Origin: an uncultured Solirubrobacteraceae bacterium
GTDB taxonomy: Bacteria; Actinomycetota; Thermoleophilia; Solirubrobacterales; Solirubrobacteraceae
Assembly (NCBI GenBank): GCA_963712675.1
Contig: CAVQJF010000021.1
Location: forward strand, 319,114 to 383,113
DNA: 64,000 bases
Reading direction: 5' to 3'
Shown here: one piece after another, positions 21,131-55,751 of the stretch
How the letters are laid out: every line of letters begins with the position of its first letter
Position numbering within the stretch: the stretch's first letter is position 1
Notes under the pieces: model-generated
Databases searched by the model: none
What the model saw: the letters and a program-made list of their open reading frames with translations, nothing else
Told to the model about the DNA's origin: nothing
Translations under genes and position numbers: made by a program

Positions 21131-21165
21131 AGAATGATACCTCATTCCGTATGAGATATCATTCC
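21131..21165. promoter_or_regulatory. Two adjacent 18-bp operators (A1, A2), each containing the TATCAT -10 of a divergent leaderless gene
   Basis: AGAATGATACCTCATTCC (21131-21148) and revcomp GGAATGATATCTCATACG (21148-21165); TATCAT sits 8 nt from ATG 21125(-) and 8 nt from ATG 21171(+). Confidence 0.85.
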
Positions 21166-21170
21166 CCTCT

Positions 21171-22784
21171 ATGGCTGCCGCAGCCATCGCTGGCAACGCC
21201 GTAACCGTCGAGCCCGACCACGAAGTGGTTGTCGTCGGCGCAGGGTTCGGCGGCATCGGGGCCGGGGTGAAGCTCAAGCGGGCCGGGATCGAGGACTTCG
21301 TGATCCTCGAGCGAGCCGGCGAGGTCGGCGGCACATGGCGTGAGAACAGCTATCCCGGGCTGGCGGTCGACATCCCGTCGTTCAGCTATCAGTTCTCGTT
21401 CGAGCTGAACCCCGACTGGTCACGGGTGTTCGCGCGCGGCGCCGAGGTGCAGGCGTACGCGATCAAGTGCGTCGACAAGCACGGGTTGCGCGAGCATCTG
21501 CGACTGAACACTCGCGTCAGCAGCGCGACATTTGACGAGGCGCACCACATGTGGCGCCTCCGAGTCGGCAGGCGGGTGATCACGACGCGATTCCTGATCA
21601 CCGCCACCGGGGGGTTCGGCAGCCCGAAGGCACCCGACATCCCGGGCCTGGAGAAGTTCGCCGGCAAGACGATGCACACGGCCGAATGGGACCACGGTCA
21701 CGATCTGACCGGGGAGCGGGTCGCCGTGATCGGCACCGGCGCGACCGCGGTCCAGCTGCTGCCCCGGCTGGCGCCGGAGGTTCGCAGGCTGTACGTCTTC
21801 CAGCGCACGCCGATCTGGGTGCTGCCGAAGCCTGATTTCGAGTTCCCCGGCGCCGTCCGGTTCGTGTTTCGCCACGCCCCGCTGGTCCAGGACTCGATCC
21901 GGCTCAGCGCGTCCGCTGGGCTCGAGGTCGGGATGGTCCTCGGCGTCATGTACAACCGCCAGCTGCCGTGGATCGTGAAGGGGATCGAGCGCCTCGGTCG
22001 GGCCTTCATCCGCTCCCAGGTGCATGATCCGGTGCTGCGTGAGCAGCTCACTCCACGCTACGGGTTCGGGTGCAAGCGCCCGAGCATGTCCAACGAGTAC
22101 TTCGCGACGTTCAACCGGGCCAACACCCAGCTGGTGACCGATCCGATCGAGCGGATCACCGCGACCGGGATCCGAACGGCCGATGGGATCGAGCGGGAGA
22201 TCGACACGCTCGTGCTCGCGACCGGGTATCAGACGACCGAGCCCGAGAACGCGCCGCCGATCCCGATCGTGGGTCGCGGCGGTCGAGATCTCGGAAGTTT
22301 TTGGCACGAGCAACGTTTCCAGGCTTACGAGGGCGCGTCGGGACCCGGATTCCCGAACGCGTTCATGACCTTCGGCCCGTACGCGTTTACCGGCAGCTCG
22401 TGGATGTTCATGGTCGAGAATCAATCCGCACATGCGGTCCGTGTGATCCAAGAAGCGCACAAGCGCGAAGCAACTCTTGCCGAAATAAGGCAGGAGCCCC
22501 ACGATCGCTTCTTCGAGGACATCTTGCGACGCCAGCAGAACACGATCTTTTTCAACAACGGCTGCGGCACCGCCAACAGCTACTACTTCGACGCGCACGG
22601 CGACGCCCCATTCCTGAGGCCGTCGCTGGCGGTGGAGGCGTGGTGGCGCGCGCGCCACTTCGACCTCGACGACTACCGCTTCGAGCGGATCGAAGAGCCG
22701 CTCGAGTCGCCGCGTGCGCCGGCGGCCACCGTCAGACGCCAGATCGAGCATCTGCAGCTCGTGGAAGGGAGTCCCACCCCGTGA
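21171..22784 (+). CDS. Flavin-containing / Baeyer-Villiger monooxygenase
   Basis: VVGAGFGG, GGTWRENSYPG, MHTAEWDH, VIGTGATAVQ. Confidence 0.93.
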   Translation: MAAAAIAGNAVTVEPDHEVVVVGAGFGGIGAGVKLKRAGIEDFVILERAGEVGGTWRENSYPGLAVDIPSFSYQFSFELNPDWSRVFARGAEVQAYAIKCVDKHGLREHLRLNTRVSSATFDEAHHMWRLRVGRRVITTRFLITATGGFGSPKAPDIPGLEKFAGKTMHTAEWDHGHDLTGERVAVIGTGATAVQLLPRLAPEVRRLYVFQRTPIWVLPKPDFEFPGAVRFVFRHAPLVQDSIRLSASAGLEVGMVLGVMYNRQLPWIVKGIERLGRAFIRSQVHDPVLREQLTPRYGFGCKRPSMSNEYFATFNRANTQLVTDPIERITATGIRTADGIEREIDTLVLATGYQTTEPENAPPIPIVGRGGRDLGSFWHEQRFQAYEGASGPGFPNAFMTFGPYAFTGSSWMFMVENQSAHAVRVIQEAHKREATLAEIRQEPHDRFFEDILRRQQNTIFFNNGCGTANSYYFDAHGDAPFLRPSLAVEAWWRARHFDLDDYRFERIEEPLESPRAPAATVRRQIEHLQLVEGSPTP

Positions 22785-24001
22785 GGATCACCGACGTCGC
22801 GCGTCTCGCGAGCGCTCAACTACTGCTCGTCTCACCGCCGCGCCGCCAGCCGAGCGCGCCGACCGACGCGTTCTATCTGCCGCCGGAGCCGTTCGGTGCG
22901 GGCGAGCCAGGAGAGCTGCTGAAGGCCGAACCCGTCGACGCATACCTCGCGCCCGGCGTGCGGATGCGCGCCCGCGCGTGGCGCATCCTGTACCGCTCGA
23001 CGTCGGCGATCGGCGAGCCGACGGCGGTGTCCGGCACGATCCTGTTGCCCGGCCGGCGGACAAGCGCCCCGCGACCGCTGATCGGCTACGCGATCGGCAC
23101 GCACGGGATCGGCGACTCGGCCGCGCCATCACGGCTGCTCCCGCGCGGGCTCGACTGGGAGGCGGGGATCATCGCGATGGTCCTCGCGCGCGGCTGGGCG
23201 GTCGCGGTGACCGACTACCAAGGGCTCGGGACGCCGGGCGATCACACCTACATGGTCGGCCGCGCGCTCGGTCCGAACGTGCTCGACGCGATGCGCGCCG
23301 CGCGCCTGCTGCATCCGAGCGAGCTGCCGCCCGAGGGTCCGGCGGCGATCATCGGGTACTCGGAGGGCGGCGCGGCTGCGGCCTGGGCCGCGCAGCTCCA
23401 GCCCACGTACGCGCCCGACGTGCAGCTGGCCGGGGTCGCGGCGGGAGCCGCTGCCGCGAACCTCGAGATCGCGGGCCCGAGCCTCGACGGCAGCTTCTTC
23501 TCGTTCTTCACCGCATACGGCGGGATCGGGTACGCGGCCGCGTACCCGGAGCTCGACCTCGATCAGCATCTGACCGAACGGGGCAAGGAGATGATTCCGT
23601 TCCTGCGGGAGTCGAATGTCCTGCAGGCGGCGATCCGTGGACCCCATTTCGCCCATTCGAACGACTGGACCGATCCGAACGTGCTCGAGCTGCCGGAGTG
23701 GCGCGTGCGGTTGCGCGAGAATCGGCTCGGCCGGATCGCGCCGCAGGCGCCGGTTCTGCTTCACCATGCGCGCCGCGACCAGATTGTCTCGTTCGTCCAC
23801 AGCCTCGATCTGCGTGACGACTGGCGCGCGCTCGGCGTCGACGTGCGGCTGTACGTCACGCGCGGCGGGGTCGACCACATCAGCGGCGCCGTAGCGGGGA
23901 CGCCGGTCGCGCTCGACTGGCTCGCCCGGCGCCTGGCCGGCGGTCGCTCCCGGCGGGCCGACGCCGGCGCCGCCGACGCGGCGGACGTCCGCGCCGCCTA
24001 G
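22781..24001 (+). CDS. LIP-family lipase, no evident signal peptide
   Basis: DAFY, TDYQGLG, IGYSEGG, GVDH; GTGA overlap. Confidence 0.88.
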   Translation: MRITDVARLASAQLLLVSPPRRQPSAPTDAFYLPPEPFGAGEPGELLKAEPVDAYLAPGVRMRARAWRILYRSTSAIGEPTAVSGTILLPGRRTSAPRPLIGYAIGTHGIGDSAAPSRLLPRGLDWEAGIIAMVLARGWAVAVTDYQGLGTPGDHTYMVGRALGPNVLDAMRAARLLHPSELPPEGPAAIIGYSEGGAAAAWAAQLQPTYAPDVQLAGVAAGAAAANLEIAGPSLDGSFFSFFTAYGGIGYAAAYPELDLDQHLTERGKEMIPFLRESNVLQAAIRGPHFAHSNDWTDPNVLELPEWRVRLRENRLGRIAPQAPVLLHHARRDQIVSFVHSLDLRDDWRALGVDVRLYVTRGGVDHISGAVAGTPVALDWLARRLAGGRSRRADAGAADAADVRAA

Positions 24002-24003
24002 GC

Positions 24004-25194
24004 CTAGCCGGGGTCCGCGGCCCAGCCGTCCTTGGCGGCCGCCCGCACGAGCTCGCGCCATGGACCGGTCGCCCCGACACGGGCGATCGTCCCGAACAGC
24101 TGCGCGATCCCGCGCGCGGGCCACATGTCCTCGGGCGGAAGCGACCCCGCGAGAATTAGCTCGACGAGCGGCTTGGGGTGGTCGAGCAGCCGGTCGCGAG
24201 CGGCCATCACGGCGGCCGTGTCGAGCCGGACCGGATCGGGGCCCGCGAGATCGCCGAGCGCAGCACGGCCGAGGTCGATCGCCGTTCGGGCATGCTCCGC
24301 CCCGAGCGCTCCGAGCTGCTCAGTGGCGGCGCCGAAGGCGTCGGCGTCGTCCGCGACGAACGCCTCGAGCGCATCCGCCGACGCCTCGAAGCGAGCGGGA
24401 TCGACGGTCCGTGTGGCGCCGAAGTCGAGAATCGCCAGACGGCCGTCGTCGAGCACCAGCACGTCGTCGGGGTCCGGATCGGCGTGCACAAACCCGGCGC
24501 GCGCCGATCCGATCACGAACACGAGCAACCGCGCCGCGGCTAGGTCGACATCCGGGGCATCTCGCAGCGGCGTCCCGTCGAGCCATTCCGAGACGAGCAC
24601 GTTGTCGCGCGCGAGCGCGGTGAACGGCGCCGGCACGAGCAGGAAAGGGTGGCCGCGAAGCGCGCGTTGGAAGCGTCGCTGGGCGGTCGCCTCGTTCTCG
24701 AGGTCGAGCTCGTCGAGGATCCGCTCACGGAACTCGCGCATCACGGCTGCCGGATCGACCGCAGGAAAGGCGGCACCGAGCGGAGCCATCAGGCTCTCGA
24801 GCAGTGCTAGGTCCTGGCGCACCGAGCCGGCCAAGCCGGGGCGGAGCACCTTGACCGCGACCTCCGCGCCGTCGAGCTTGCCGCGGTGGACCTGCGCGGT
24901 CGGCGTGACGGCGATCGGCTCCGCGTCGAGCGAGTCGAGCTCGTCGGTCGGTTTTCCGCCCCAGGCGCTGCGCAGGGCTCGCTCGATGTCGCGGAACGGG
25001 ATCGGCTCGCACGCATCCGCCCGGGCAGCGTCGAGCTCGGCGGCGATCGTGTCGCCCCACGGGCGGGGGATCCACTCGGGTTCGATCGCGATCGCCGTCC
25101 GCGCCAGCAGCACGCGTCCGCTCGGCGCGGAACGGGCGAGCCGGAGTCCGACCTGGATCAGGGCATCGATCCGTCTGAACGCGTCGTCAGCCAT
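24004..25194 (-). CDS. Degenerate ABC1/AarF/UbiB kinase-like protein
   Basis: VAVK, ELD and DFG retained; no KxGQ motif, A-rich loop reads AVTPTAQV, catalytic loop reads HADPDPDD. Confidence 0.82.
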   Translation of the reverse strand: MADDAFRRIDALIQVGLRLARSAPSGRVLLARTAIAIEPEWIPRPWGDTIAAELDAARADACEPIPFRDIERALRSAWGGKPTDELDSLDAEPIAVTPTAQVHRGKLDGAEVAVKVLRPGLAGSVRQDLALLESLMAPLGAAFPAVDPAAVMREFRERILDELDLENEATAQRRFQRALRGHPFLLVPAPFTALARDNVLVSEWLDGTPLRDAPDVDLAAARLLVFVIGSARAGFVHADPDPDDVLVLDDGRLAILDFGATRTVDPARFEASADALEAFVADDADAFGAATEQLGALGAEHARTAIDLGRAALGDLAGPDPVRLDTAAVMAARDRLLDHPKPLVELILAGSLPPEDMWPARGIAQLFGTIARVGATGPWRELVRAAAKDGWAADPG

Positions 25195-25223
25195 CGACCG
25201 CGCGATGATACGCGAGAGTCGCC

Positions 25224-25241
25224 GGACTGATGTATCATTCC
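25224..25241. promoter_or_regulatory. 18-bp operator B in divergent promoter
   Basis: GGACTGATGTATCATTCC (revcomp GGAATGATACATCAGTCC). Confidence 0.85.
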
Positions 25242-25251
25242 GCGCTGCGGG

Positions 25252-26163
25252 ATGGCTACCGTCAAGCCAACAATCGTGGTCGTGACCGGCGCGGGCAGCG
25301 GCATCGGGCGCGCGACGGCCGAGCGATTCGCTCGCCGCGGCTCTCAGGTGATCGTCGCCGACATCGACGAGCCCGCGGCCGATGAGACGGTCAGCCGGAT
25401 CGAGAACGAAGGTGGCCGCGCGTACGCATACCGGCTCGATGTCGCCGACCACCGTGCTTGGGAGGCGTTCGCCGCGGGGGTCCGCGACGCCCACGGTGTG
25501 CCGGATGTGCTCGTCAACAACGCCGGCATCCTCATCTCGGGCTCGTTCCTCGACCACGATGCCGAGGATTGGGAGCGGATCGTCGGCGTCAACCTGATGG
25601 GGGTCGTCCACGGCTCGCGCGTGTTCGGCCGCCAGATGGTGGACCGACGAGAGGGCGGGCAGATCGTCAACATCGCCTCCGCGGCGGCGTTCGTACCGCT
25701 GCGCTCGGCGCCGGCGTACGCGGTCACGAAGGCGGCTGTGCTGATGCTGTCCGAGTGCCTACGGATCGAGTTCGCCTCCGACGGGATCGGCGTGACCGCG
25801 ATCTGCCCGACGGTGATCAAGACGAACATCGCTCGCAACTCGAGCCTCGCCGGCGTCGATCCCGGACTCGAGCAGCGTTTCGTCGAGCTCGGAGCGGCGC
25901 TCCAGGACCGGTTCGCCTGGACGAGTCCCGACAAGGTCGCCCGCGCGGTCGCCCGTTCGGTGGCGCGCAACTGGGCGATCGTCCCCGTCAACCCGGACGC
26001 CTGGGTCGTCTACGCCGTGAGACGGATCTCACCCAGCGTGCTGCGGGCAGGCGCGAGAATCGCGAGCTTCGACAGGGCGCTGAGCGGCGCCAACCGCCTG
26101 TTCCCGCGCGTCGTCGGCGACCGGCCACCGGCGGACGAGACCGCAGCCATCCAGGAGGTGTGA
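25252..26163 (+). CDS. Short-chain dehydrogenase/reductase
   Basis: TGAGSGIG, NNAG, YAVTK. Confidence 0.92.
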   Translation: MATVKPTIVVVTGAGSGIGRATAERFARRGSQVIVADIDEPAADETVSRIENEGGRAYAYRLDVADHRAWEAFAAGVRDAHGVPDVLVNNAGILISGSFLDHDAEDWERIVGVNLMGVVHGSRVFGRQMVDRREGGQIVNIASAAAFVPLRSAPAYAVTKAAVLMLSECLRIEFASDGIGVTAICPTVIKTNIARNSSLAGVDPGLEQRFVELGAALQDRFAWTSPDKVARAVARSVARNWAIVPVNPDAWVVYAVRRISPSVLRAGARIASFDRALSGANRLFPRVVGDRPPADETAAIQEV

Positions 26164-26165
26164 AG

Positions 26166-27950
26166 ATGGACGTCACGACCACCGAGGAGCGATCGACCAC
26201 GCGGACGAGCACCGTCAGGCGCGCCGGCGCCGAGCTGTACGTCACCGAGTCTGGGCCCGGCGACGCCCCGACGGTTCTGTTCGTGCACGGCTTCCCGGAC
26301 ACCCACGGATGCTGGGAAGAGGTCATCGGGCTGCTCTCGGGCCGCTTCCACGTCGTCGCCTACGACATCCGCGGGATCGGTCGCTCAACAGCTCCCGATC
26401 GCAGCGAGGGGTTCGCGCTCTCGGAGCTCGCGCTTGACCTCGGCGCCGTGATCGACGCGGTCAGCCCCGACGCTCCTGTCCACCTCGTCGGACACGACTG
26501 GGGGGCGTTCCAGTGCTGGGAGGCCGTGCTGACCGACGGTGTCCGCGAGCGGGTTGCTTCGTTCACGGCCGTCGCCGGCCCGCGGATCGACGTCGCGCGC
26601 GAATGGGCGCTGCGGCGGCTCGGTACCTCGCCCCGGGGCCTTCGCGAGCTTGCCGGCCAGGCGCGGCGCTCGTGGTACATCGGGGCGTTCCAGCTTCCAT
26701 GGCTCCCCGAACGACTGCTCGGCGCCGGCGCGGCGCCGGAGCGCGGCTGGCGTCAGGCGATGCGGAGGCTCGAGGGGATCGAGCCCCGGCCGGGCCATCC
26801 GGCGCCCACGTTCGCGAGCGACGCCCGCACCGGGCTCGCGCTCTACCGGACCAACCTCCGCGGACTCGCCGGCTCGCCCAAGCGCCACGAAGGTCCGGCG
26901 CAGGTCCCGGTGCAGCTGATCGTCGCGACTCGCGACCGCTACGAATCGCCGGCGCTGTTCGCCGATGCGCAGGAGTGGGCGGCCCGCGTCTGGCGCCGGG
27001 ACGTGCGCTCGGGCCACTGGGTCCAGCGCTCGCATCCGGACCAGGTGGCGCGATTCGTCTCAGAGCTCGTCGAGCACGTCGAGGGCGCGCCGGAGACCGG
27101 TGCGCTCCGCCGCGCCCGGTACCACGGCGAGCGGGACGGGATGGGCGGTCGGCTCGCGATCGTGACCGGCGCCGGCAGCGGCATCGGTCGCGCCACCGCG
27201 CTGGCGCTCGCCGCGGAGGGCGCCGAGGTGATCGCGGCCGACATCAACCTCGAGTCGGCCAAGGAGACACTCGAGCTTGCACCGGGCGACGCGCACATGC
27301 ACGCTGTCCTGCTCGACGTCGGCGACGCCGACGCGATGGAGCAGTTCGCTGAGATGGTCGAGCGCGAGCACGGGGTGCCGTCGATCGTGGTCAACAACGC
27401 CGGGATCGGGATCGGCGGCGCGTTCCTCGATACGACGCTGGCCGACTGGGAGCGGATCATGGACGTCAACCTGTGGGGCGTGATCCACGGCTCACGGCTC
27501 TTCGCGCGGCGGATGGTCAGCGCCGGCGTTCAGGGCCACATCGTGAACATCTCCTCGGCCGCGGGGTACACGCCGTCGCGGATGCTGCCCGCCTACTCGA
27601 CGACCAAGGCCGCCGTGCTGATGCTGTCGGAGTGCATGCGCGCCGAGCTCGCGGAGGCGGGGATCGGCGTGACCGCGATCTGCCCCGGGATCGTCAACAC
27701 GAACATCACCCGCACGACGCACATGGTCGGCGTCGATCCCGAGGAGGAGCGCCGGATGCAGCAGCGGACCGCCCGCGCCTACGGCATGCGTGGCTACCCG
27801 CCGGAGAAGGTCGCCGCCGCGATCGTCGGCGCCGTCAAGCGGAATCCCGCCGTCCTGCCGGTGACGCCCGAGGCGCGCGTGATGCGGACGATGTCGCAGC
27901 TGACGCCGGGCCTGGTCCGGCGAATGGCTCGCCTCAACCCCGGGGGCTAG
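26166..27950 (+). CDS. ephD: EphD-like epoxide hydrolase (alpha/beta) + SDR fusion
   Basis: HGFPD, GHDWG (Asp nucleophile), GHW; then TGAGSGIG, NNAG, YSTTK. Confidence 0.85.
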   Translation: MDVTTTEERSTTRTSTVRRAGAELYVTESGPGDAPTVLFVHGFPDTHGCWEEVIGLLSGRFHVVAYDIRGIGRSTAPDRSEGFALSELALDLGAVIDAVSPDAPVHLVGHDWGAFQCWEAVLTDGVRERVASFTAVAGPRIDVAREWALRRLGTSPRGLRELAGQARRSWYIGAFQLPWLPERLLGAGAAPERGWRQAMRRLEGIEPRPGHPAPTFASDARTGLALYRTNLRGLAGSPKRHEGPAQVPVQLIVATRDRYESPALFADAQEWAARVWRRDVRSGHWVQRSHPDQVARFVSELVEHVEGAPETGALRRARYHGERDGMGGRLAIVTGAGSGIGRATALALAAEGAEVIAADINLESAKETLELAPGDAHMHAVLLDVGDADAMEQFAEMVEREHGVPSIVVNNAGIGIGGAFLDTTLADWERIMDVNLWGVIHGSRLFARRMVSAGVQGHIVNISSAAGYTPSRMLPAYSTTKAAVLMLSECMRAELAEAGIGVTAICPGIVNTNITRTTHMVGVDPEEERRMQQRTARAYGMRGYPPEKVAAAIVGAVKRNPAVLPVTPEARVMRTMSQLTPGLVRRMARLNPGG

Positions 27951-28741: not shown

Positions 28742-28763
28742 GTGCGCACGGTATCGTCCGCGC

Positions 28764-30532: not shown

Positions 30533-30545
30533 GCCGCCCGCCGCT

Positions 30546-31624: not shown

Positions 31625-31642
31625 TGACTGATACGTCATTCG
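31625..31642. promoter_or_regulatory. 18-bp operator C in divergent esterase/lipase promoter
   Basis: TGACTGATACGTCATTCG. Confidence 0.75.
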
Positions 31643-33020: not shown

Positions 33021-33021
33021 C

Positions 33022-36704: not shown

Positions 36705-36722
36705 GGAATGATACATCACTCC
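36705..36722. promoter_or_regulatory. 18-bp operator D in divergent promoter
   Basis: GGAATGATACATCACTCC. Confidence 0.85.
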
Positions 36723-36761
36723 TTGAAATGGGGGCCGTCGCCGCATATCGTTCGGCCGGCT

Positions 36762-37043
36762 GTGAGATCGATCGAGGGCACCGACGCGCGGCGTTGGGCG
36801 GCACTTGGAGGCGTCCTCGCGGGCGCGGCCGGGGCCGTGGTCGCCGTGTTCGCCGCGCGCGCGGGCTTCCGCGTGTTCCTCCGGGCGCTCCGGATCGGGC
36901 GTGGATTCGGCTGGTTCTGCTACGTCGCGGCGACGCTCCAGCTGCTCCGCCGCTGTCCGGACTGCAGGCGGCTCATCCGGCGCGACTGCCGCGTCTGCCG
37001 GCACTGCGGCTGGCGCCGCGGTCAGGCGGACGAGTCCGCGTAG
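36762..37043 (+). CDS. Small membrane protein with C-terminal zinc ribbon
   Basis: Hydrophobic segments, then CPDC..CRVCRHCG; start uncertain. Confidence 0.6.
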   Translation: MRSIEGTDARRWAALGGVLAGAAGAVVAVFAARAGFRVFLRALRIGRGFGWFCYVAATLQLLRRCPDCRRLIRRDCRVCRHCGWRRGQADESA

Positions 37044-38404
37044 AACCCGGCCTCGAGCTCGCCGAGCTCGGTCACGGGCGGCTCGCCGTACATCCACTCG
37101 CGCGCGATCCGGTGCCAGTTCGCGCTCGCATGCAGCTGACCGAGCAGCGCGAGCGTGAACAGGTCCATGCGCCGCGCGAGCGCGTGCTCGGGCGGCAGAT
37201 GCTGGTGGCGGAACTGGCGGAAGTGTTCCGAGCGTGGCATCGCCGATTCGATCAGCGCCGTCGTCGCCATCTCCGGCGTCAGCGCGATCTCCTCGTCGTC
37301 GAGGTACCAGCCGATCGCGTCGTGGACGTAGTCGAGCCAGGCCGCCGGGTCGATCCGGCCGGGGTCGGGAAAGATCCCGGCCGCAGCCATCAGCGCGTGC
37401 AGCTCCGCGGCGCGGTGCTCGGCGGCGGCGCGCTGACAGGCGAGCTCGAGCTCGACGCTCGCCGGCGCCATCCGCTTGAAAAGGCCGAAATCGAAGAACG
37501 CGACCCGGCCGTCGGGCTGCAGCAGGAAGTTGCCCGGGTGGGGATCGCCCGAGAACTCGCCGCGGCGGTAAAGCGTGCCGCAGAAGAACCTGTAGACCGC
37601 CTCGGCGACCCGGTTGCGCACGTCGTCGGGCGCCCGCTTCAACTCTTCGAAGCCGGCGCCCTCGACGTACTCCGAGACCAGCACCTGCTTGCCGCACAGC
37701 TCGATCACGACGTCCGGCACGGAGATGAACGGGTGCTCGCGGAACACGGCGGCGAACTGACGCTGGTTCTTCGCCTCCTGGACGTAGTCGAGCTCCTCGC
37801 CGACGCGGAGCCTGATCTCTCTCGCGAGCGCCTCAACATCGAGCCCCGGCATCGTCCGCTGCGCGAGCCGCAGCACGAGCGAGAGGTTCTTCATGTCGGC
37901 GCGGACCGCGGCAGCCACGCCTGGGTACTGGACCTTGACCGCGACCGTGCGGCCATCGCGCAGCTCGGCGCGGTAGACCTGGCCGATCGAGGCGACCCCG
38001 ATCGGCTCCTCGTCCAGCGAGCGGAAGATGCTCGCCCGCGGCCGGCCGAGGTCCTCCTCGAGCGCGCGCATCATCCGCGCGAACGGGACCTGGGGCGCCG
38101 AGTCGCGGAGCGCGGCGAGCTTGCGCTGGAACTCCGGCCGCGCGTCGCGCGGGACGACGCCGAGGTCGACGAACGACAGCATCTGGCCGAGCTTCATCGC
38201 CGCGCCCTTCATCGTCCCAAGCACGGTCAGGATCTGATCCGCCGTCTCGAGGTGGCGCCGCTCGAGCGCGGCGCGGCGCGCTTTCGGCGGCCGGACGACG
38301 TTCGCGGCGTGGGTGCCGGCGTGGCGCGCTGCCTCGGTCGCGGCTAGCTTGCCGACCTTCGCGGCCCGGGCGGCGCGCGAGGTCGGGATGCGCGCCTCGC
38401 CCAC
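37022..38404 (-). CDS. ABC1/AarF/UbiB family kinase
   Basis: MKLGQ, ASIGQV, VAVKVQYPG, ELDY, GDPHPGN, DFG. Confidence 0.92.
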   Translation of the reverse strand: MGEARIPTSRAARAAKVGKLAATEAARHAGTHAANVVRPPKARRAALERRHLETADQILTVLGTMKGAAMKLGQMLSFVDLGVVPRDARPEFQRKLAALRDSAPQVPFARMMRALEEDLGRPRASIFRSLDEEPIGVASIGQVYRAELRDGRTVAVKVQYPGVAAAVRADMKNLSLVLRLAQRTMPGLDVEALAREIRLRVGEELDYVQEAKNQRQFAAVFREHPFISVPDVVIELCGKQVLVSEYVEGAGFEELKRAPDDVRNRVAEAVYRFFCGTLYRRGEFSGDPHPGNFLLQPDGRVAFFDFGLFKRMAPASVELELACQRAAAEHRAAELHALMAAAGIFPDPGRIDPAAWLDYVHDAIGWYLDDEEIALTPEMATTALIESAMPRSEHFRQFRHQHLPPEHALARRMDLFTLALLGQLHASANWHRIAREWMYGEPPVTELGELEAGFYADSSA

Positions 38405-39094: not shown

Positions 39095-39112
39095 GGAACG
39101 ATACGTCATGCC
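39095..39112. promoter_or_regulatory. 18-bp operator E directly upstream of tetR
   Basis: GGAACGATACGTCATGCC; preceded by CCATGATTAAC, the same context as site F. Confidence 0.75.
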
Positions 39113-40510: not shown

Positions 40511-40528
40511 GGAATGATATGTCAGTCC
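40511..40528. promoter_or_regulatory. 18-bp operator F
   Basis: GGAATGATATGTCAGTCC, 7 nt from the kinase ATG. Confidence 0.85.
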
Positions 40529-48605: not shown

Positions 48606-49915
48606 GGCGACCCCGAGCAGAGCCCGAGTTCGGAGACCAGCGACACCGCCGCGGGGTTGAAGCTCGCGATCGCCGAGCACGGGATCGGTGAGTTCAGCGC
48701 GCCGAGCGGCAGCGTGAACGGCCCCTGCAGCGTGCCTCGGAGCGCGTGGCCGGTCGCGCCCCCGACGAGCCGCTGGTTCGGCACCACGAAGTCCGACAGC
48801 GCCCCGGTGAATCCGGTCGTCGCCGCCATCAGCTGCAGGTAGACGGGCAGCCCGAGCGCCCCGCGCGAGTTGAGGAACGGGATCAGCGAGCCGTTGAGCA
48901 GCTTCGCCGCGGGGGCGAGCGTCGCGAACAAGCGGCCGAGCGCCGGGCTCGCCTTTGCGAGTCGCGTGAGCGTCACGGCGAACGAGGCGATCACCGGCGG
49001 CAGCGCCTTCAGGGTCGGATCCGCGCGATCTAACAGCCCAATCAGCGGGCCCGTCGTCGGCGCGATCGCGTCCAGCGTCGGTGTCAGCGCCCGCGCGGTC
49101 GACCGCGCGCGGTGAAGGAGCGCGACGAGGTCGTTGCCGGCGCTCGTGGCGGCCGCGAGCGTGCCCGGCAGGACCCTGAGCGTGTGGTCGAACGGCGCGG
49201 CGTCGTCGACCGCGATCGCGTCGAGCGTGCGGCTCGCGTCGTGGACGACGCTCTGCAGCTCGTGGTCCTGACCGGCGAGCGCGTCGACAGTCGCCGCCGC
49301 CGAGGGGATCAGCGAGCGGAGCTCGGTGTGATGGGGACCGCGCAGCGCCGGTGCGACCAGCGTCGTGTCGCGCAGCAGCACCGGGGCGTTGCGGATCGCC
49401 GTTGAGAGGCCGATCTGGCCCGGCCGCTCGAGCGCCCGCGAAAGTTGCGCGACGATCACCTGGAAGCTGTGCCTGACGGGCGCCGTGAACGTCGACAGCA
49501 CATCGCCGGCGGACACGAACACGCTCGTGTGATCGATCGGGATCGGCGCACTGCCAAGCGGCCCCGCGGCCGCCGTCCCGGGGTAGAGATCGACGAACGT
49601 CGTGCCCTCGAACGGTGTGTGCGGGCGCAGCGCCGCGGTCGCGTCCCGGTAGATCGGGATCCGCTGGTGCAGGATCAGGTCGACCTCGGCGTGGTTGCCG
49701 ATCCGGCGGACCGCCCCGATCGTGCCAACGTTGACGCCGGCGACGCGGACGTCGCGCTGCACGAGCGCGATCGACTGCACGTGGTCGAACGTCACGTGCA
49801 CGACCTGGTTCGTTGCGAACGGGTTCGGCTTGACGATCCCGAGCCAGGCGCCGCCTGCGACGACGACGACGACGGCTACGCCGAGCAAGCGCGTGCGGGC
49901 TCGAGCGCTCAGCAT
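48602..49915 (-). CDS. MCE/MlaD family protein (4th)
   Basis: DVRVAGVNVGTI MCE motif. Confidence 0.88.
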   Translation of the reverse strand: MLSARARTRLLGVAVVVVVAGGAWLGIVKPNPFATNQVVHVTFDHVQSIALVQRDVRVAGVNVGTIGAVRRIGNHAEVDLILHQRIPIYRDATAALRPHTPFEGTTFVDLYPGTAAAGPLGSAPIPIDHTSVFVSAGDVLSTFTAPVRHSFQVIVAQLSRALERPGQIGLSTAIRNAPVLLRDTTLVAPALRGPHHTELRSLIPSAAATVDALAGQDHELQSVVHDASRTLDAIAVDDAAPFDHTLRVLPGTLAAATSAGNDLVALLHRARSTARALTPTLDAIAPTTGPLIGLLDRADPTLKALPPVIASFAVTLTRLAKASPALGRLFATLAPAAKLLNGSLIPFLNSRGALGLPVYLQLMAATTGFTGALSDFVVPNQRLVGGATGHALRGTLQGPFTLPLGALNSPIPCSAIASFNPAAVSLVSELGLCSGSP

Positions 49916-51189
49916 AGGAGCTGTTTGCGGTCGCGCCCGGCCTGGCCGGGCTTCGGGTATGGGTCACGGCCGCCGGAGCAGCCGAGCGTGCCGGTGATGC
50001 GGATCGCCGGCTTGCCGTTGTACGTGTAGCTCGTGACCTTCGACAGCTGGCGGGCGAAGATCGTGAGCTCGGCCCCGTACGCGTGGATCGCCGCGTCGAA
50101 GGTCGTGCCGTAGCTGATCAGCAGCGGCAGCGACTCCGCGGGATCGCGCAGCGAGTCGAGCACGGGGATCAGGCCGCGGAGCACAGCCGGTGCGTACCGG
50201 TTGAAGCGCCGCGTCGCGTCGACGAGCGTCGGGCCGGACCGGAAGAGCGCGATGAAGTCGGGATCCTCCGCCGCGATCTGGACAGCGAGCGGCTCGAACG
50301 CGCGGCTCGCCTTGGTCGCCGCCGTGATCGCTTCATCCGCGAGCGGCGCCGTCTCGAGCAGCTGCTGCTCGGCGCCGGAGAAGCGCCCGATCGCCGTGGC
50401 CGCGCGGTCGTTCTGGGCCAGCGTCTGCCAGAACGTCGCGGCGGCCGTCGTGCCGGCGGCCACGTCGTCGGGACGGCGGCCGAGGAGCGCGCCGGAGACC
50501 GTCGCGCCGCTCGCGATCAGCCGCCCCAGCGTGCCCCTGATCGGGGTCAGCAGCGCCCGCAGCAGCGGCGTCCCCTGCTCGTAGTCGATCCGCTCCTCAG
50601 CGATCGCCTGGTTGGTCTGCTCGCCGCGGCCGACCCAGCCCTCGCCGATCACCGTGGTGTTGCGCGCCAGCGCGCGCCGCGTGGCGGCGTCGAATGTCTC
50701 GAGCGCTTGGGGCAGCGACGAGCTCAGGGCGACCCGGCTCTCCGGGATCACGGTCCCCGCTGGCAGGGGATGGCGGTAGTCGCCGGGGTTGACGACCAGG
50801 TAGACGAGCGTCGTGCCGAGCAGCACGCCGACGTGGATCGAGGCGCCGCGGCCGAGCGGGGCGTACTGCGAATCGAGATTGGCGTTGACGCGCAGCGTCG
50901 TCCGTCCCGGCTCGACGCTAGTCACGCTGCCGGCGATCTTGCCGGCGACACGAATCTGAGCGCCGGTCGCGAGCGGCGGCGTTGTACCCGGGAGGATGAC
51001 GGTGAAGGGGTAGTGGCCCTGGAACGGGACGCCATTGGTCGAGAGCCAGGCGAAGATCACGATCACGCCGCCGACGGCGGCGACCCCGAGCCCGAGCGCG
51101 AGCGTCCGCCGCTCGAGCGCCGCGACGCCGCGCAGCAGCCGGCCGCGGAAGCGGAGTCGTCGGGAGTGCGGCGTTCGGGTACCGGTCAT
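49909..51189 (-). CDS. MCE/MlaD family protein (3rd)
   Basis: GAQIRVAGKIAGSV MCE motif; ATGA overlap. Confidence 0.86.
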   Translation of the reverse strand: MTGTRTPHSRRLRFRGRLLRGVAALERRTLALGLGVAAVGGVIVIFAWLSTNGVPFQGHYPFTVILPGTTPPLATGAQIRVAGKIAGSVTSVEPGRTTLRVNANLDSQYAPLGRGASIHVGVLLGTTLVYLVVNPGDYRHPLPAGTVIPESRVALSSSLPQALETFDAATRRALARNTTVIGEGWVGRGEQTNQAIAEERIDYEQGTPLLRALLTPIRGTLGRLIASGATVSGALLGRRPDDVAAGTTAAATFWQTLAQNDRAATAIGRFSGAEQQLLETAPLADEAITAATKASRAFEPLAVQIAAEDPDFIALFRSGPTLVDATRRFNRYAPAVLRGLIPVLDSLRDPAESLPLLISYGTTFDAAIHAYGAELTIFARQLSKVTSYTYNGKPAIRITGTLGCSGGRDPYPKPGQAGRDRKQLLC

Positions 51190-52682
51190 TTGCCGAGCAG
51201 GAAGCGGAGCAGCGACGGGAGGGAGGGGATCGGCGACGAAGGCGGGGCGGGCGGCGGCGTCGACGCCGTCGTGGTCGTGGACACCGGGGGGGCGGCGGTG
51301 GCCGGCGTTGCGGGGGCTGTCGGAGTGGCGGACGCGGCGCTGCGCCGGCCGGGCGCGGGTCTTGTCCGCGACGACTTGGGAGCCGCGTGCGGGTGGGCGA
51401 AGCTCTTGCCGTAGGTCGCGAGAATGTTGGTCAGGCAGCCGGGTGCGACGGGCACGCCGAACAGCTCGCAGCTGATCACGAGGTAGGCCGAGAGATAGTC
51501 GCGCGCCGGGTCGACGTTCGGGGCGGTGATGTCGTTGCCGGGGAGCACGGTGCCGCCGAGCCCGCCGCCGTTGGTAGAGCCGAACAGGCCGTCCGACAGC
51601 TGTCGGAGGATCGGCTGGAGCGCGGAGAACAGGCCGCTCGTCGGGTTGAGCAGGCTCGCGAACGTCGTGCGCGAGAGCGCTGCGAGCGCCGGCGCGCTGT
51701 GCCTGAGCGCCGTGCCGGCGAGCTCCACGGTCGGCGACGCGAGCCTCGCCGCCTGCGACAGCGCGTTGGCGTAGGGACCGACGAGTCCGGCCGCGCGCTG
51801 AAAGCCCGGGGCGCCGGCAATGATCGTCTGCGAGAGCGGCTCGAGCGCGCTCGTCAGCGCCCGCACCCGGCGGAGCGTCGCTCCGGTCGCCGACAGCGTG
51901 GCCGGCAGCCGTGCGAGGCCCGAGTCGAGCTGTGCGGACTGGCCCGCGACCCCGGTGATCGTGCGCTCGAGGCCGACGACGAGGCGATCGAGGTCGCCGG
52001 TCCGCGAGGCGAGCTGGCCCGTCAACGAGTGGGAGTTCGACAGCACCTGTTTCAGCGAGCCGATCTGGCTCCGGAGCTCGGAGAAGACCTCGCCCAGGGC
52101 CTCGAATCCCGGTCGGAGCTTGAGGATCGCGGCGTTGACATCGACGCCGCGGTTCTCCATCGCCGTCCCGAGCTCGACGATGAACGCCTTCAATGCCGCC
52201 CGGACGGGCTTCTGGAAGATGTCGAGGAAGTCGTCGAGCCTCGGCTCCTGGATCGAGCGCGGCTCGGCGATCGGGCCGGTCAGCGGCTTCGAGGACGAGC
52301 CGAGCTCGAGCGACAGGTCGGTGTCGCCGAGCAGGTCGTCCTGGCGGATCGCGACGGTCGCGTCGGCCCGTGGCTGCGGCACTCCGGGGTCGAGCTGGAA
52401 CATGACTTCGGCTGTGCCCTGCCTGGTCAGCGCGACTTTGCGCACCGACCCCGCGACCGCGCCCGAGACACGAACGTCCATGCCGGCCACGAGCGGCCAC
52501 GCGTCTGCGAACTCGGCCCGGTACTCGGGCCCTCTGTCGAGCAGTCCGTAGTGGAGCAACGCGTAGCCGCCGACCGACACGACCAGGATTCCCGCGAGCA
52601 GCAGCGCCGACAGGCGGGCAATGACGGTGTGCGTTGAGCCGCTGAGCAGGGTCTGCGCGCGCCGGGTGAAGCCGGAGGTCAC
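51186..52682 (-). CDS. MCE/MlaD family protein (2nd), Pro/Ala/Thr-rich C-terminus
   Basis: GMDVRVSGAVAGSV MCE motif. Confidence 0.88.
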   Translation of the reverse strand: MTSGFTRRAQTLLSGSTHTVIARLSALLLAGILVVSVGGYALLHYGLLDRGPEYRAEFADAWPLVAGMDVRVSGAVAGSVRKVALTRQGTAEVMFQLDPGVPQPRADATVAIRQDDLLGDTDLSLELGSSSKPLTGPIAEPRSIQEPRLDDFLDIFQKPVRAALKAFIVELGTAMENRGVDVNAAILKLRPGFEALGEVFSELRSQIGSLKQVLSNSHSLTGQLASRTGDLDRLVVGLERTITGVAGQSAQLDSGLARLPATLSATGATLRRVRALTSALEPLSQTIIAGAPGFQRAAGLVGPYANALSQAARLASPTVELAGTALRHSAPALAALSRTTFASLLNPTSGLFSALQPILRQLSDGLFGSTNGGGLGGTVLPGNDITAPNVDPARDYLSAYLVISCELFGVPVAPGCLTNILATYGKSFAHPHAAPKSSRTRPAPGRRSAASATPTAPATPATAAPPVSTTTTASTPPPAPPSSPIPSLPSLLRFLLGK

Positions 52683-53998
52683 GGAAACTCCCCTGGGAAC
52701 GGAGCCTGCTGGGCCGCGGTCAGGTAGCTCGTGGCGGCCTTACCGCCGCCCACGAACGTCTTTGAGTAGTCGAGCCACGGGTCGCACGCCAGCTGGCCGG
52801 GCACGCGATCGAACGGCCGCAGCAGCCAGCCGGCGGCGCAACTAGGCGACTTGACCGGTGTCTGCGGCGCCGGGCGCGGGAACGCGAGCACAAGCCATCC
52901 GTGTCCGTTCGCGTTGTAGTTAGCGGACGCGTCGCCGAGCAGCGGGATCCAACCGAGGACATCGGGCGCCCGTGCCCGCAGCTGGTCGAACACCGGGTTG
53001 ATGCCTGCGAGGCCCCCGTTGAGCTGCTCGAGCGTGGTCGGGAGCGGCGGGCCGAGCAGCGTCGCGATCGGCTTCGAATGCCGGCGGAACGCGGCGACGA
53101 GGCTGAGCGCGGCGCGGAACACGGGCAGCGTCAGGGGGGCGGTCGTGCGCAGGGCGGCGGCGAACGGGTCGATCGCGGCGAGCGCCGGCCGGGCGGCGTT
53201 GATCAGCTCGCTGAAGTCGGGGATCGACTGATCGAACGTGGTCAACGCCGCGCGCGTCGCGCCGAACGCCGCCGGCAGGCGCTGGAGGCTGTCGCTCAGC
53301 TGCGCCTGGCGGCCGGCGGCTACGTCGAGCAGTCGCCCGAGCTTGTCGACGGTGTCCTTGACGTCCGCCGGCTCGGATGCGACCGCCTGTGCGCCGGCGG
53401 CCGCTCTGTCGACCAGCGTCCGCAGCGCGGTCCCGTCCGAGGAGACGTCCTTGAAAAGGTTCGCGGTCTGGTTGAACGCGTCGCCGCTGTAGCGGAGCGC
53501 CTGCTCGATGTCCGGCCCACGCCCTGTCAGCGTGTAGACCGTCTCGTGCAGCAGCTGGCGGAGCTCGGTGCGCACCTTCGGCGTCAGAACCGACAGGAAC
53601 TGGTCGATCTCGACCGGCCCGTCGGTGTGGCTGAGCGGGATCGTGGCGCCGTCCGGGAGCGGCGGACCGGTTCCGTTGCTCAGCGCGATGTAGCGATTGA
53701 GCTGCCCGGCGAGCGAGCCGAGCTCGATCACGGCGTGCGCGCCCTGGCGCAGGCGGTAGGAGTCCGCCACCTGCATCGTCACCCGCGGGTACTGCCCCAT
53801 CTTCACCGAGATGCCGGTGATCGAGCCGACATTGAAGCCGGCGACCTCGACGTTGCCGGTCGTGACGAGGCCGTTGACGTTCCCGAACACCGCGTGGACC
53901 GTGTACGTCGGCCCGCCGCCGGTCGCGAGGAACGCGATCGCGATCGCCACGGCGAGCGCGGCGAACGCGGCCGCCGCTTGTCGGCGCGGCGTGCTCAC
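52679..53998 (-). CDS. MCE/MlaD family protein (1st)
   Basis: NGLVTTGNVEVAGFNVGSI MCE motif; GTGA overlap. Confidence 0.88.
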   Translation of the reverse strand: MSTPRRQAAAAFAALAVAIAIAFLATGGGPTYTVHAVFGNVNGLVTTGNVEVAGFNVGSITGISVKMGQYPRVTMQVADSYRLRQGAHAVIELGSLAGQLNRYIALSNGTGPPLPDGATIPLSHTDGPVEIDQFLSVLTPKVRTELRQLLHETVYTLTGRGPDIEQALRYSGDAFNQTANLFKDVSSDGTALRTLVDRAAAGAQAVASEPADVKDTVDKLGRLLDVAAGRQAQLSDSLQRLPAAFGATRAALTTFDQSIPDFSELINAARPALAAIDPFAAALRTTAPLTLPVFRAALSLVAAFRRHSKPIATLLGPPLPTTLEQLNGGLAGINPVFDQLRARAPDVLGWIPLLGDASANYNANGHGWLVLAFPRPAPQTPVKSPSCAAGWLLRPFDRVPGQLACDPWLDYSKTFVGGGKAATSYLTAAQQAPFPGEFP

Positions 53999-54771
53999 GC
54001 GATCGGGAACGGGGGCTTGAAGCCCCACAGGATCAGGCTCGTGATGCCGTTCATGAGCGCGATCAGGACGAGGTTGACGCGCATCGAACGCGCCGCAGCC
54101 TCGCCGACCTCGACCGGCCCGCCGCGGACGCGGTAGCCGTAGAACAGCGCCGTCGCGAGCACGACCATGAAGATCACGACGCCCTTGACCAGCGAGTACA
54201 CGAGGTCGATCGGGTGAAAGCCGATGAAGAACGCGACCCGGTAGGTGCCCGTCGAGACCGCGTGGAAGCGGACCAGGGACGTGAGCCACGCGCCGAACTG
54301 GGCGGCCGCGACGCTCGCCAGGTATACGGGCGGAATCACGATCGAGGCGGCGACCAGCCGTGTGCTGACCAGATAGGCCATCGAGCTGATGCCCATGACC
54401 TCGATCGCGTCGACCTCCTCGTTGACGCGCATCGCGCCGAGCTCGGCGACCATCCCGCAGCCGACCTTGGCGGCGAGGATCATCCCGAACAGGACCGGGA
54501 CGATGTCGCGCACGGTGCAGACCGCCGCGAAGAACGGCGCCGCGATCCCGGCGCCGATCTGCTGGCCAACGAACGACGCCTCGACGCCGCACGAGCCGCC
54601 GATCAGGAACGTCACGAACACGATCACCAGCGTCGAGCCGGTGGCGATGATCGCCGCCTGCCTGAGGACCTCGGAGGCGAGCGGTCCAAGGCGGCGGATG
54701 CCCTTTACAGCTCGGCTCATGAACTGCGCCCACTCCCCGAGCGCCAGCAGCGGGTCAGTCCGGTCATTCAT
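53995..54771 (-). CDS. MlaE/YrbE-type ABC permease (B subunit)
   Basis: AELGAMRVNEEVDAIEVMGI, GGPVEVGEA. Confidence 0.92.
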   Translation of the reverse strand: MNDRTDPLLALGEWAQFMSRAVKGIRRLGPLASEVLRQAAIIATGSTLVIVFVTFLIGGSCGVEASFVGQQIGAGIAAPFFAAVCTVRDIVPVLFGMILAAKVGCGMVAELGAMRVNEEVDAIEVMGISSMAYLVSTRLVAASIVIPPVYLASVAAAQFGAWLTSLVRFHAVSTGTYRVAFFIGFHPIDLVYSLVKGVVIFMVVLATALFYGYRVRGGPVEVGEAAARSMRVNLVLIALMNGITSLILWGFKPPFPIA

Positions 54772-55664
54772 CGCAGCACCAGCGAGTCCGGGTACAGCGC
54801 CAGGAACAGCGTCGTGAACAGCAGCCCGACCGCGCCGACCCCGACCAGGCAGGCGACCACCGACTCGTTGACCGCGCGGCCGACCCCCTCGGCGCCGCCG
54901 GACACCGACAGGCCCTTGTAACAGGCGATGATCCCGATCATGAAGCCGAAGATCAGCGTCTTGATCTCGCTCCCCCACAGATCGACATAGCTCGTGTTCG
55001 CGAGCGCCTGGTGGATGAAACTGCCCGACGTCCCGCCGAGCAGGCCGACGGCGCCGGCGTACGCGCCGAGCACGCCGGCGACGAGGCCGAGCATGTTCAG
55101 TACCAACATCACCGTCGTCAGCGCGACGATCCGCGGCAGCACCAGGTTGCGGATCGGGTCAATGCCCATCACCCGCAGCGCCTCGATCTCCTCGCGAATC
55201 ACGCGTGCGCCGAACTCGGCGGTGATCGTCGTCCCGATCGTGCCCGCCATCACGGCGCCCGAGATGATCGGCCCGCCCTCACGCAGCAGCGCCACGGGGA
55301 CGAACGCGCCGACGCGGTCGACGGCGCCGAACGCCTCGAGCGCGGCGCCGCCCGAAACACCGGCCCCCGCGAAGCCGACCAGGAAGTTGATCAGCAGCAC
55401 GGGCGTGATCGCGAGCCAGAACACGTTCGCGCACTGGACCGTCGCCTCGCGGCGCCACGACATCCCCGGCGTGACGAGCTCGATCAGGCATCGGATCGCG
55501 AGCGCGGCCATCTGGCCGGCGCGGTCGATCCACAGCAGCGGCGGAACCTGCCGCAGGTCGACCCGTCGCGTCGGCTGCGCGGCGGGGTCGCGTGTCGGCT
55601 GCGCTGCGGGGTCGCGCGTCGGCTGCGCGGCGGCGTCTCGCGCCGCCGGTCGGGCGAAGCTCAA
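54768..55664 (-). CDS. MlaE/YrbE-type ABC permease (A subunit)
   Basis: TAEFGARVIREEIEALRVMGIDP, GGAEGVGRAVN; TTG start after AAGGAGAGG RBS. Confidence 0.92.
   Translation of the reverse strand: MSFARPAARDAAAQPTRDPAAQPTRDPAAQPTRRVDLRQVPPLLWIDRAGQMAALAIRCLIELVTPGMSWRREATVQCANVFWLAITPVLLINFLVGFAGAGVSGGAALEAFGAVDRVGAFVPVALLREGGPIISGAVMAGTIGTTITAEFGARVIREEIEALRVMGIDPIRNLVLPRIVALTTVMLVLNMLGLVAGVLGAYAGAVGLLGGTSGSFIHQALANTSYVDLWGSEIKTLIFGFMIGIIACYKGLSVSGGAEGVGRAVNESVVACLVGVGAVGLLFTTLFLALYPDSLVLR
55570..55641. repeat. 24-bp tandem repeat x3 encoding AAQPTRDP-like repeats in the permease N-terminus
   Basis: GTCGGCTGCGCGGCGGGGTCGCGT-like units starting at 55570, 55594 and 55618. Confidence 0.85.
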
Positions 55665-55733
55665 ACCTCTCCTTTCCCTGGCGGCGGCCGCAAATCGGGG
55701 GCAGACGGCCACGCCTCCGCGCGTCAGACTAGC

Positions 55734-55751
55734 AGAATGATACGTCACTCC
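55734..55751. promoter_or_regulatory. 18-bp operator G upstream of the mce operon
   Basis: AGAATGATACGTCACTCC; contains TATCAT on the minus strand. Confidence 0.85.

Follow-up and report, generated by a model that had tools for sequence, protein, structure and literature searches.

Which protein reads the 18-bp palindrome that recurs across a lipid island of an uncultured Solirubrobacteraceae bacterium, and are this regulator and its operator of a new kind? The question arises from a stretch of 64,000 nucleotides (the window; contig CAVQJF010000021.1 of assembly GCA_963712675.1, positions 319,114 to 383,113), in which genes for lipases, cytochromes P450, Baeyer-Villiger monooxygenases (BVMOs), short-chain dehydrogenases/reductases (SDRs), an Mce lipid importer and ABC1/UbiB-family kinases lie close together. 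The initial annotation of this DNA had proposed a single TetR regulon, with an 18-bp palindrome as its operator at seven promoter regions, and this proposal holds. As judged by sequence comparison, it is a real and well-conserved TetR regulon, whose regulator and operator belong to the known FadR/YsiA type and whose target set is specific to the lineage. The binder of the eight sites is almost certainly TetR1, the TetR-type protein encoded within the island at 38410-39087.

Distribution of the operator in the window and the genome

The window was annotated with Pfam and NCBIfam scans, and operons were predicted from overlapping or adjacent stops and starts (Table 1). A pattern search with RGAATGATAYNTCANTCC on both strands, allowing at most three mismatches, gave 13 strand-matches, whereas 100 dinucleotide-shuffled versions gave 0.27 on average and never more than 2, and it recovered all eight sites of the initial annotation with their coordinates and strands. 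Their consensus is RGAATGAYRYRTCAnTCC, an 18-bp sequence of two-fold symmetry with the core GAATGA-N4-TCATTC. When a symmetrised matrix was built from the eight sites, the scores in the window were bimodal, with the eight sites at 21.5-30.2 bits and all other positions at or below 8 bits. The same matrix was applied to the 5.29-Mb assembly, for which a codon-usage model called 4,751 genes, 88% of the genome being coding. Only nine sites reach 21.5-30.2 bits and the runner-up has 16.6 bits; eight of the nine lie in the 35-kb island, and the ninth (C22:111112, on contig C22) precedes a gene for a beta-lactamase-fold, esterase-like protein. Despite the high coding density, all nine are intergenic or at the extreme 5' end of a gene, in agreement with the placement first described, and the motif is not spread equally over coding DNA. 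The number of nine operators is the highest seen, the relatives having one to four.

Some promoters of the island carry no site. Every position scores below 0 bits at the proximal promoters of the P450 gene 40768-42180, the phospholipase C gene, the extracytoplasmic function (ECF) sigma factor gene, the acyltransferase/SDR pair near 28770 and the lipase gene at 11357, and a TATCAT-containing sequence at 25202, near the start of ABC1 kinase a, scores -7 bits. An origin of the sites from a repeat or a mobile element was rejected, since they share only the 18 bp, save for an identical 11-nt flank beside the sites at 39095 and 40511. This flank (39084-39094 and 40500-40510; CCATGATTAAC on the plus strand, GTTAATCATGG on the coding strand, ATG included) adjoins operators 6 and 7, and suggests that promoter and 5' end were duplicated along with the paralogous ABC1 kinase genes.

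TetR1 as the cognate regulator

TetR1 has a single TetR_N helix-turn-helix (HTH) domain (PF00440, 61.4 bits, residues 38-84), and its relatives put the genome in Solirubrobacterales/Thermoleophilia. The 7 nt that the initial annotation had counted between an operator and the ATG of this gene are exact (site from 39095, ATG at 39087), and the geometry is identical in four related loci from metagenome-assembled genomes (MAGs) and one metagenome contig (L001, L002, L003, L007 and L058, below the five related loci). A survey of the phylum with a 400-genome sample found TetR1 homologues of 32-47% identity in 21 genomes besides this one. Upstream boxes were counted in 25 loci of the survey and three loci from relatives (38-73% identity), i.e. 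28 loci from at least five families, and (T/G)GAATGACATGTCATTC(C/A) stands directly upstream of the TetR gene itself in 26 of these homologues (32-73% identity, Actinomycetota). Moreover, TetR1 is present in only four of 31 relatives (G000, G018, G023 and G027), and the same four alone have sites of 27-34 bits, which adjoin TetR1 or lie near it; in the remaining relatives, without TetR1, the best site has at most 19.9 bits, which is the chance ceiling. The upstream boxes and this co-occurrence bear out TetR1 as an autoregulated binder, as had been proposed. An independent matrix built from foreign sites only, namely those upstream of TetR1 homologues in other families, places all nine sites within the top ten of this genome, its chance ceiling being given by three random third-order Markov genomes that peak at 17.8-18.7 bits. 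No TetR1 paralogue above 27% identity was detected in the genome.

The sites are also kept at orthologous promoters despite gene shuffling, namely those of the SDR and ligase fusion with the zinc-ribbon open reading frame (ORF), ABC1/P450, lipase/BVMO, lipase/methyltransferase and yrbEA. The position of operator 5 is kept in the five related loci, all of which have an equivalent small ORF divergent from the SDR and ligase operon with the operator between them; the zinc-ribbon ORF itself has 47-71% identity in L001, L002, L003 and L007. Operator 8 is kept upstream of all four close YrbEA orthologues that have upstream DNA (79-87% identity), and an equivalent is absent upstream of the YrbEA paralogues of 43-68% identity that were examined. 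Among 18 sampled other genomes of the same genus, one has TetR1, so the island is an accessory and patchily distributed trait.

Farther away, the pairing of box and TetR1 homologue takes other forms. A variant of the site, AGACTGACACGTCAGTCC, precedes an mce operon of Nocardia by about 175 nt, and this operon has two TetR1 homologues in tandem at its end. In 12 Nocardia genomes (L008-L019), AGACTGACACGTCAGTC(C/G) stands before yrbEA of the mce operon, about 8.4 kb upstream of the TetR match, and in the two loci that were mapped (L009 and L010) a tandem pair of TetR1-like genes comes after the mce operon. An Aquirhabdus MAG (L006), which belongs to the Gammaproteobacteria, has a site with a TetR1 homologue on one side and a BVMO-SDR-esterase operon on the other. 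In several other families of Actinomycetota with small genomes, a conserved 320-380-aa protein adjoins the TetR1 homologue and the box (L036:2114-3148, L035:127-1272, L044:2435-3553, L048:490-1461, L043:2230-3192 and L046:2110-3084). These proteins have 47-74% mutual identity, fall into no Pfam family and lack a homologue in this genome, and they may represent the ancestral target of the TetR1 family. In the public records every TetR1 homologue is annotated as 'AcrR/TetR family' only.

Two other TetR proteins were weighed as binders. The initial annotation had named TetR2 (56176-56847) as the alternative, and it is indeed a TetR gene only 425 nt from operator 8. However, it is divergent from fabD-fabH-fabG, a partnership kept in L002 and L058, and its intergenic region has no box (best -3.2 bits) but different conserved palindromes. 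No TetR2 homologue was detected in L001 and L007, both of which are site-bearing; its recognition helix carries Ser and Gln in place of the DNA-contacting Gly and Tyr of FadR and TetR1, and it is only 24% identical to TetR1. On the strength of the fab partnership, its own palindromes, the missing box and the differing helix residues TetR2 was rejected, and it is hardly credible as the binder. The TetR2/fabD intergenic region (56848-56962) has two elements that are kept in three genomes (also L002:2750-2910 and L058:5215-5440), a perfect inverted repeat TCCCCCCG-NN-CGGGGGGA (56876-56893) and GTACTACAGCGTAC; these are probably operator(s) of TetR2 for the fabD-fabH-fabG operon, which continues with genes for acyl carrier protein (ACP) and ketoacyl synthase (KAS), in a FasR-like arrangement. 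The second protein is a FadR-like TetR on contig C10 (C10:325046-325669), which could occupy these boxes by itself or compete for them with TetR1. The two proteins share first place among the matches of a B. subtilis FadR fragment in the genome, and a 19.3-bit box (TGAATGACATGTCAGCCG at C10:327039) lies 1.4 kb away from the C10 gene. On the other side, its gene lacks an upstream box and is embedded in an unrelated operon, the box at C10:327039 stands between convergent gene ends with a score at the chance ceiling and is probably fortuitous, the recognition helix of the protein has Leu at the position of Thr in FadR and TetR1, and the occurrence of the motif across the relatives tracks TetR1. 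A role of the C10 protein at these boxes is quite unlikely.

Relation to Bacillus FadR and promoter geometry

The box of B. subtilis FadR is WTGAATGAMTANTCATTCAN (TGAATGA-N4-TCATTCA) and the operator of B. halodurans FadR is GATGAATGAAT*ACTCATTCAT (PMC5397183). Bacillus FadR occupies its box as a dimer of dimers and leaves it when long-chain acyl-coenzyme A (acyl-CoA) binds, the structure being that of the B. halodurans protein (PDB 5GPC). The half-sites GAATGA/TCATTC and the 4-nt spacer of the island operators are identical to those of the Bacillus box, and the consensus TGAATGA of the TetR1 family (dyad positions -9 to -3) is identical to both FadR operators; the general form of the operator is (R/T)GAATGA-N4-TCAnTC(C/A), compared with TGAATGA-N4-TCATTCA for FadR. 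By this comparison the motif is a FadR-type box, i.e. one of an already known type of regulator. The initial annotation had compared it only with the motifs of KstR and KstR2, from which it does differ, and so missed the match; the claim of novelty falls with it, while that of a regulon stands. No relevant paper came up when the literature was searched for the exact strings of the actinobacterial operators, and in a search for GAATGA, TCATTC and TetR the FadR paper was the sole relevant match.

The protein points in the same direction. The top sequence match of TetR1 among solved structures is B. subtilis FadR/YsiA (3whb, E 2.7e-13), and of the named NCBIfam models it scores highest with 'fatty acid metabolism transcriptional regulator FadR' (NF053878, 67.6 bits). 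Its AlphaFold model (pLDDT, the predicted local distance difference test, 81) has FadR with stearoyl-CoA as the top Foldseek match (3whc, template modelling score, TM, 0.81). In B. halodurans FadR, Gly42 and Tyr45 contact bases and Thr43 and Tyr47 contact phosphates; they correspond to G68, Y71, T69 and Y73 of TetR1. The alignment of the TetR1 family (A1) shows no variation at G68, T69 and Y71, and conservation of at least 90% at Y73. Both regulators are autoregulated, and both regulons include an acyl-CoA ligase. The differences concern the Arg-rich N-terminal arm of 30 residues in TetR1 (RRRGRRPPP, conserved in A1), which is missing from Bacillus FadR, and the targets. The regulon of Bacillus FadR consists of beta-oxidation genes, whereas that of TetR1 consists of lipases, BVMOs, P450s, SDRs, the Mce importer and ABC1 kinases; behind the nine sites there are no beta-oxidation genes of the fadE, fadB, fadA or etf types, and only the acyl-CoA ligase fusion is common to both. 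Furthermore, unlike in Bacillus, the TetR1 operator doubles as the -10 element of promoters that would be near-leaderless.

This last feature is seen in the promoter geometry. The stronger half TATCATTCC points toward the downstream gene in all nine sites. A scan of 20900-40800 for sigma-70-type promoters gave four, where 0.7 would be expected, and each of them overlaps or abuts an operator (Table 1). In operator 1, read on the minus strand, TATCAT is the -10 of the alpha/beta hydrolase gene, and the same site provides the -35-like ATGATA of the opposite promoter; operator 2, which overlaps it by 1 nt, has its -10 TATCAT at 21157-21162. Operator 7 holds the -10 TATCAT (40519-40514, minus strand) of a promoter with 11 of 12 consensus positions, and operator 5 abuts the -35 of TTGAAA-17-TATCGT (36723-36751). 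For five genes the start codon follows 5-13 nt past the site, which suggests very short or absent leaders and a repression by occluding the -10 and the transcription start. The initial annotation had seen a -10-like hexamer TAnnnT in each site; the overlap of operator and -10 and the repression geometry stand, but TATCAG at 31625 does not fit TAnnnT.

The orientation of TATCAT, which in one half of the site is always directed toward the downstream gene, together with an ECF sigma gene inside the island (44251-45462), could also be read as a promoter element for a dedicated sigma factor instead of a repressor site. This is very improbable: the motif is a two-fold symmetric palindrome, its half-sites are 4 nt apart against 16-17 nt in ECF -35/-10 pairs, in other families GAATGACATGTCATTC lacks the -10 hexamer and still stands upstream of the TetR gene, and the island is kept in loci of relatives (L001 and L058) in which no ECF sigma gene is seen. 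The sigma reading was rejected on symmetry and spacing. A further alternative is that TetR1 does bind, but activates some sites or regulates them in a dual manner like FasR, rather than purely repressing. The operator at 36705 sits immediately 5' of the -35 of the zinc-ribbon ORF promoter and abuts it, a distance of 50-70 nt separates sites 36705 and 55734 from the starts of SDR 35834-36655 and yrbEA, respectively, TetR-family activators of lipid genes exist, and the FasR model gives TetR1 45.6 bits. Activation is, however, incompatible with at least five promoters, where the operator contains the -10 hexamer or is 5-13 nt from the ATG, and FadR, the closest relative of TetR1, is a repressor. 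We regard activation as unlikely, though a little less so than the C10 protein.

We infer binding by TetR1, repression rather than activation, near-leaderless transcription and an effector, and consider it likely that a self-regulated TetR1 recognises the box in the fashion of FadR, represses the island by occlusion and is displaced by a lipid effector. Without effector, TetR1 dimers would occupy the eight island operators and the C22 site, possibly two dimers per operator by analogy with FadR. As the operator half TATCATTCC would double as the -10 hexamer in this lineage and the starts follow 5-13 nt on, the bound repressor would block RNA polymerase. The tandem sites 21131 and 21148 would form a 35-bp super-palindrome that gives -35 and -10 elements to two divergent near-leaderless genes. 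Binding of a lipid-derived effector would release TetR1 from the DNA, and about 25-30 genes would then be induced jointly. Besides TetR1, their products would be secreted lipases and esterases, P450s, SDRs and BVMOs, forming a route of sub-terminal oxidation and ester cleavage, as well as the SDR-acyl-CoA-ligase fusion, the Mce importer and three ABC1/UbiB kinases. A long-chain acyl-CoA, produced by the ligase fusion of the regulon, would be the simplest and most likely effector, with a free fatty acid, ketone or ester as the alternative.

Several observations weigh against this interpretation. The 67.6 bits of TetR1 are far under the FadR equivalog cut-off of 200, and the identity to Bacillus FadR is only about 25-28%. 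The fold search is consistent with FadR but not discriminating, as the Foldseek E-values of many TetRs are nearly equal, and the Gly-Thr-x-Tyr helix, being widespread in TetRs, says little about specificity. The CoA anchors of B. subtilis FadR (Arg116, Asn120, Arg150 and Arg153) face T147, L151, A181 and G184 of TetR1; because these residues are not aligned, an acyl-CoA effector is unsupported at the residue level. Arg149, which is invariant in the family, and Arg185 of TetR1 are at most two residues from the anchor positions, the HMMER pairwise alignment being unreliable at 28% identity. In addition, the spacing of 8-13 nt from -10 to ATG is somewhat long for strictly leaderless mRNAs, and with the independent matrix sites 21148 and 39095 reach no more than 18.0-18.3 bits, at the chance ceiling; these two were accepted because of their position and conservation. 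A bolder version of the FadR-type model is possible but rather doubtful, namely that the recognition code was kept from Firmicutes to Actinomycetota in a TetR family spread over the whole phylum, and that Solirubrobacterales rewired the regulon from beta-oxidation to an island of lipolysis, sub-terminal oxidation, Mce and ABC1 genes, with the operator serving as a leaderless -10 and with an effector other than acyl-CoA; candidates would be a ketone, an ester, a hydroxy-fatty acid or a free fatty acid.

Target genes and comparison with other lipid regulons

Table 1. Operators, promoters and genes of the lipid island (window coordinates)
Feature	Position	Strand	Description
Target operon	15138-21125	-	Methyltransferase, P450, P450, BVMO, alpha/beta hydrolase
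Operator 1	21131..21148		AGAATGATACCTCATTCC; 5 nt from ATG of alpha/beta hydrolase 20241-21125(-)
Promoters	21131/21148		Two mirror-image ATGATA-17-TATCAT formed by these overlapping sites; ATGs 8 nt beyond each -10
Operator 2	21148..21165		Reverse complement GGAATGATATCTCATACG; 5 nt from ATG of BVMO 21171-22784(+)
Target operon	21171-24001	+	BVMO, LIP-family lipase
ABC1/UbiB-family kinase a	24004-25194	-	Probable target, site 30 nt upstream
Operator 3	25224..25241		Between ABC1 kinase 24004-25194(-) and SDR 25252-26163(+); TATCAT faces SDR
Target operon	25252-27950	+	SDR, hydrolase-SDR fusion
Acyltransferase	~27947-28762	-	ORF overlapping antisense with the SDR ORF
SDR	~28773-29663	+	ORF overlapping antisense with the acyltransferase ORF
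Target operon	29660-31646	-	SDR, Abhydrolase_3 esterase
Operator 4	31625..31642		Between esterase 30546-31646(-) and LIP lipase 31683-33020(+)
LIP-family lipase 2	31683-33020	+	Probable target, site 41 nt upstream
Target operon	33288-36655	-	SDR and SDR-acyl-CoA-ligase fusion (849 aa)
Operator 5	36705..36722		Between SDR 35834-36655(-) with SDR-acyl-CoA-ligase fusion 33288-35837(-) and zinc-ribbon ORF 36762-37043(+)
Promoter	abuts site 36705		TTGAAA-17-TATCGT; serves zinc-ribbon ORF
Small zinc-ribbon ORF	36762-37043	+	93 aa; C-terminal zinc ribbon, UPF0547-like, below Pfam cut-off
ABC1 kinase b	37022-38404	-	Same operon as TetR1 (37022-39087)
TetR1	38410-39087	-	225 aa; predicted to be co-transcribed with ABC1 kinase 37022-38404
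Operator 6	39095..39112		7 nt upstream of TetR1 ATG (39087)
ABC1 kinase c	39106-40503	-	465 aa
Operator 7	40511..40528		7 nt from ATG 40503 of ABC1 kinase 39106-40503(-); 240 nt from P450 40768(+)
Promoter	-10 inside site 40511		TTGACA-17-TATCAT, 11/12 consensus; ABC1 ATG 40503 next
P450 and phospholipase-C-like phosphoesterase	40768-44234	+	Nearest site 240 nt upstream
ECF sigma and YCII-family partner	44251-45854	-	Sigma gene 44251-45462, DUF6596 with tetratricopeptide repeat (TPR) C-terminal extension
Target operon yrbEAB-mceABCDEF	45886-55664	-	Mce lipid importer; site 70 nt upstream
Operator 8	55734..55751		70 nt upstream of yrbEA, first gene of mce operon 45886-55664(-)
TetR2	56176-56847	-	Divergent from fabD-fabH-fabG-ACP-KAS

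A few gene calls and memberships of Table 1 need comment. The start of the esterase 30546-31646(-) is uncertain and possibly near 31610, whereas that of ABC1 kinase c at 40503 is supported by a 465-aa orthologue gene call in L058. The frame 36728..38347(+) of the initial annotation proved to be a shadow of the minus-strand ABC1 kinase gene 37022-38404. The control of P450s that it had claimed stands for 15911-18708, although only via operon membership, and for 40768-42180 it depends on the site 240 nt away. In the relatives a P450 gene is always divergent from a site-bearing promoter, and the membership of P450 40768-42180 and of the phospholipase C in the regulon is uncertain. At 27947-29663 the acyltransferase ORF (-) and the SDR ORF (+, 28659-29663) overlap antisense and share the third-codon position, and the codon-position GC switches between them near 28700-28770. 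From this switch and the shared position they are probably a divergent pair with starts about 10 nt apart (~28762 and ~28773), between which there is no FadR-type box; 29131-29660 is part of the plus-strand SDR gene. The ECF42-like sigma/YCII pair immediately follows the mce operon in the same orientation, and has no FadR-type box of its own. From the functions of the families we infer that the enzyme set fits lipolysis and sub-terminal oxidation of alkyl chains.

KstR and KstR2 are TetR repressors of large regulons of lipid and steroid catabolism that include an mce operon. The KstR motif TnnAACnnGTTnnA is unrelated to the operator of TetR1, and the NCBIfam KstR model (NF033703) gives TetR1 33.1 bits with a cut-off of 280. 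The mymA operon of M. tuberculosis (Rv3083-Rv3089) encodes a flavin/Baeyer-Villiger monooxygenase, a hormone-sensitive lipase (HSL)-type esterase, an SDR, an acyltransferase and an acyl-CoA ligase, and is controlled by VirS, an AraC-type activator, so that the enzyme set is similar to that of the island and the type of controller differs. EthR is a TetR encoded divergently from a BVMO gene (EthA), as in the Aquirhabdus locus L006 and in L033, and its operator is long and of a different sequence. No genes for an Mce importer or ABC1 kinases are known to be involved in mymA or EthA/EthR. A regulation of the AlmA type was rejected, as the known almA regulator is AraC-type and unrelated. Mce3R of M. 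tuberculosis (Rv1963c) is a TetR-type repressor beside an mce operon that co-controls lipid-oxidising enzymes; it is a fused double TetR of 406 aa with asymmetric, non-palindromic 25-bp sites (PMC11667970). TetR1 matches it weakly in sequence (9b7y, E 1.3e-10) and differs from it as a single TetR with one HTH and a palindromic 18-bp site, while the tandem TetR1-like genes by the Nocardia mce operon recall the fused Mce3R next to mce3. Based on model scores, architecture and motif, membership of TetR1 in Mce3R, KstR or KstR2 was rejected.

No new regulatory principle is revealed by this locus. What it provides is a clean and comparatively validated regulon for Solirubrobacterales (Thermoleophilia), an almost unstudied soil lineage, and it suggests that the TetR proteins recognising the Bacillus FadR box form a very divergent family, much wider than present annotation shows. 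The operator and its repressor would make a compact pair for high-GC hosts, with near-consensus promoters inside the operator. Moreover, the regulon ties genes that are hard to interpret, such as the three ABC1/UbiB kinases, the ligase fusion, the Mce importer, the BVMOs and the esterases, into one putative co-regulated pathway of lipid utilisation, and this co-membership yields testable functional hypotheses for the genes of the island. If the regulon was indeed rewired in Solirubrobacterales, bacterial ABC1 kinases would be linked to the sensing or mobilisation of lipid substrates.

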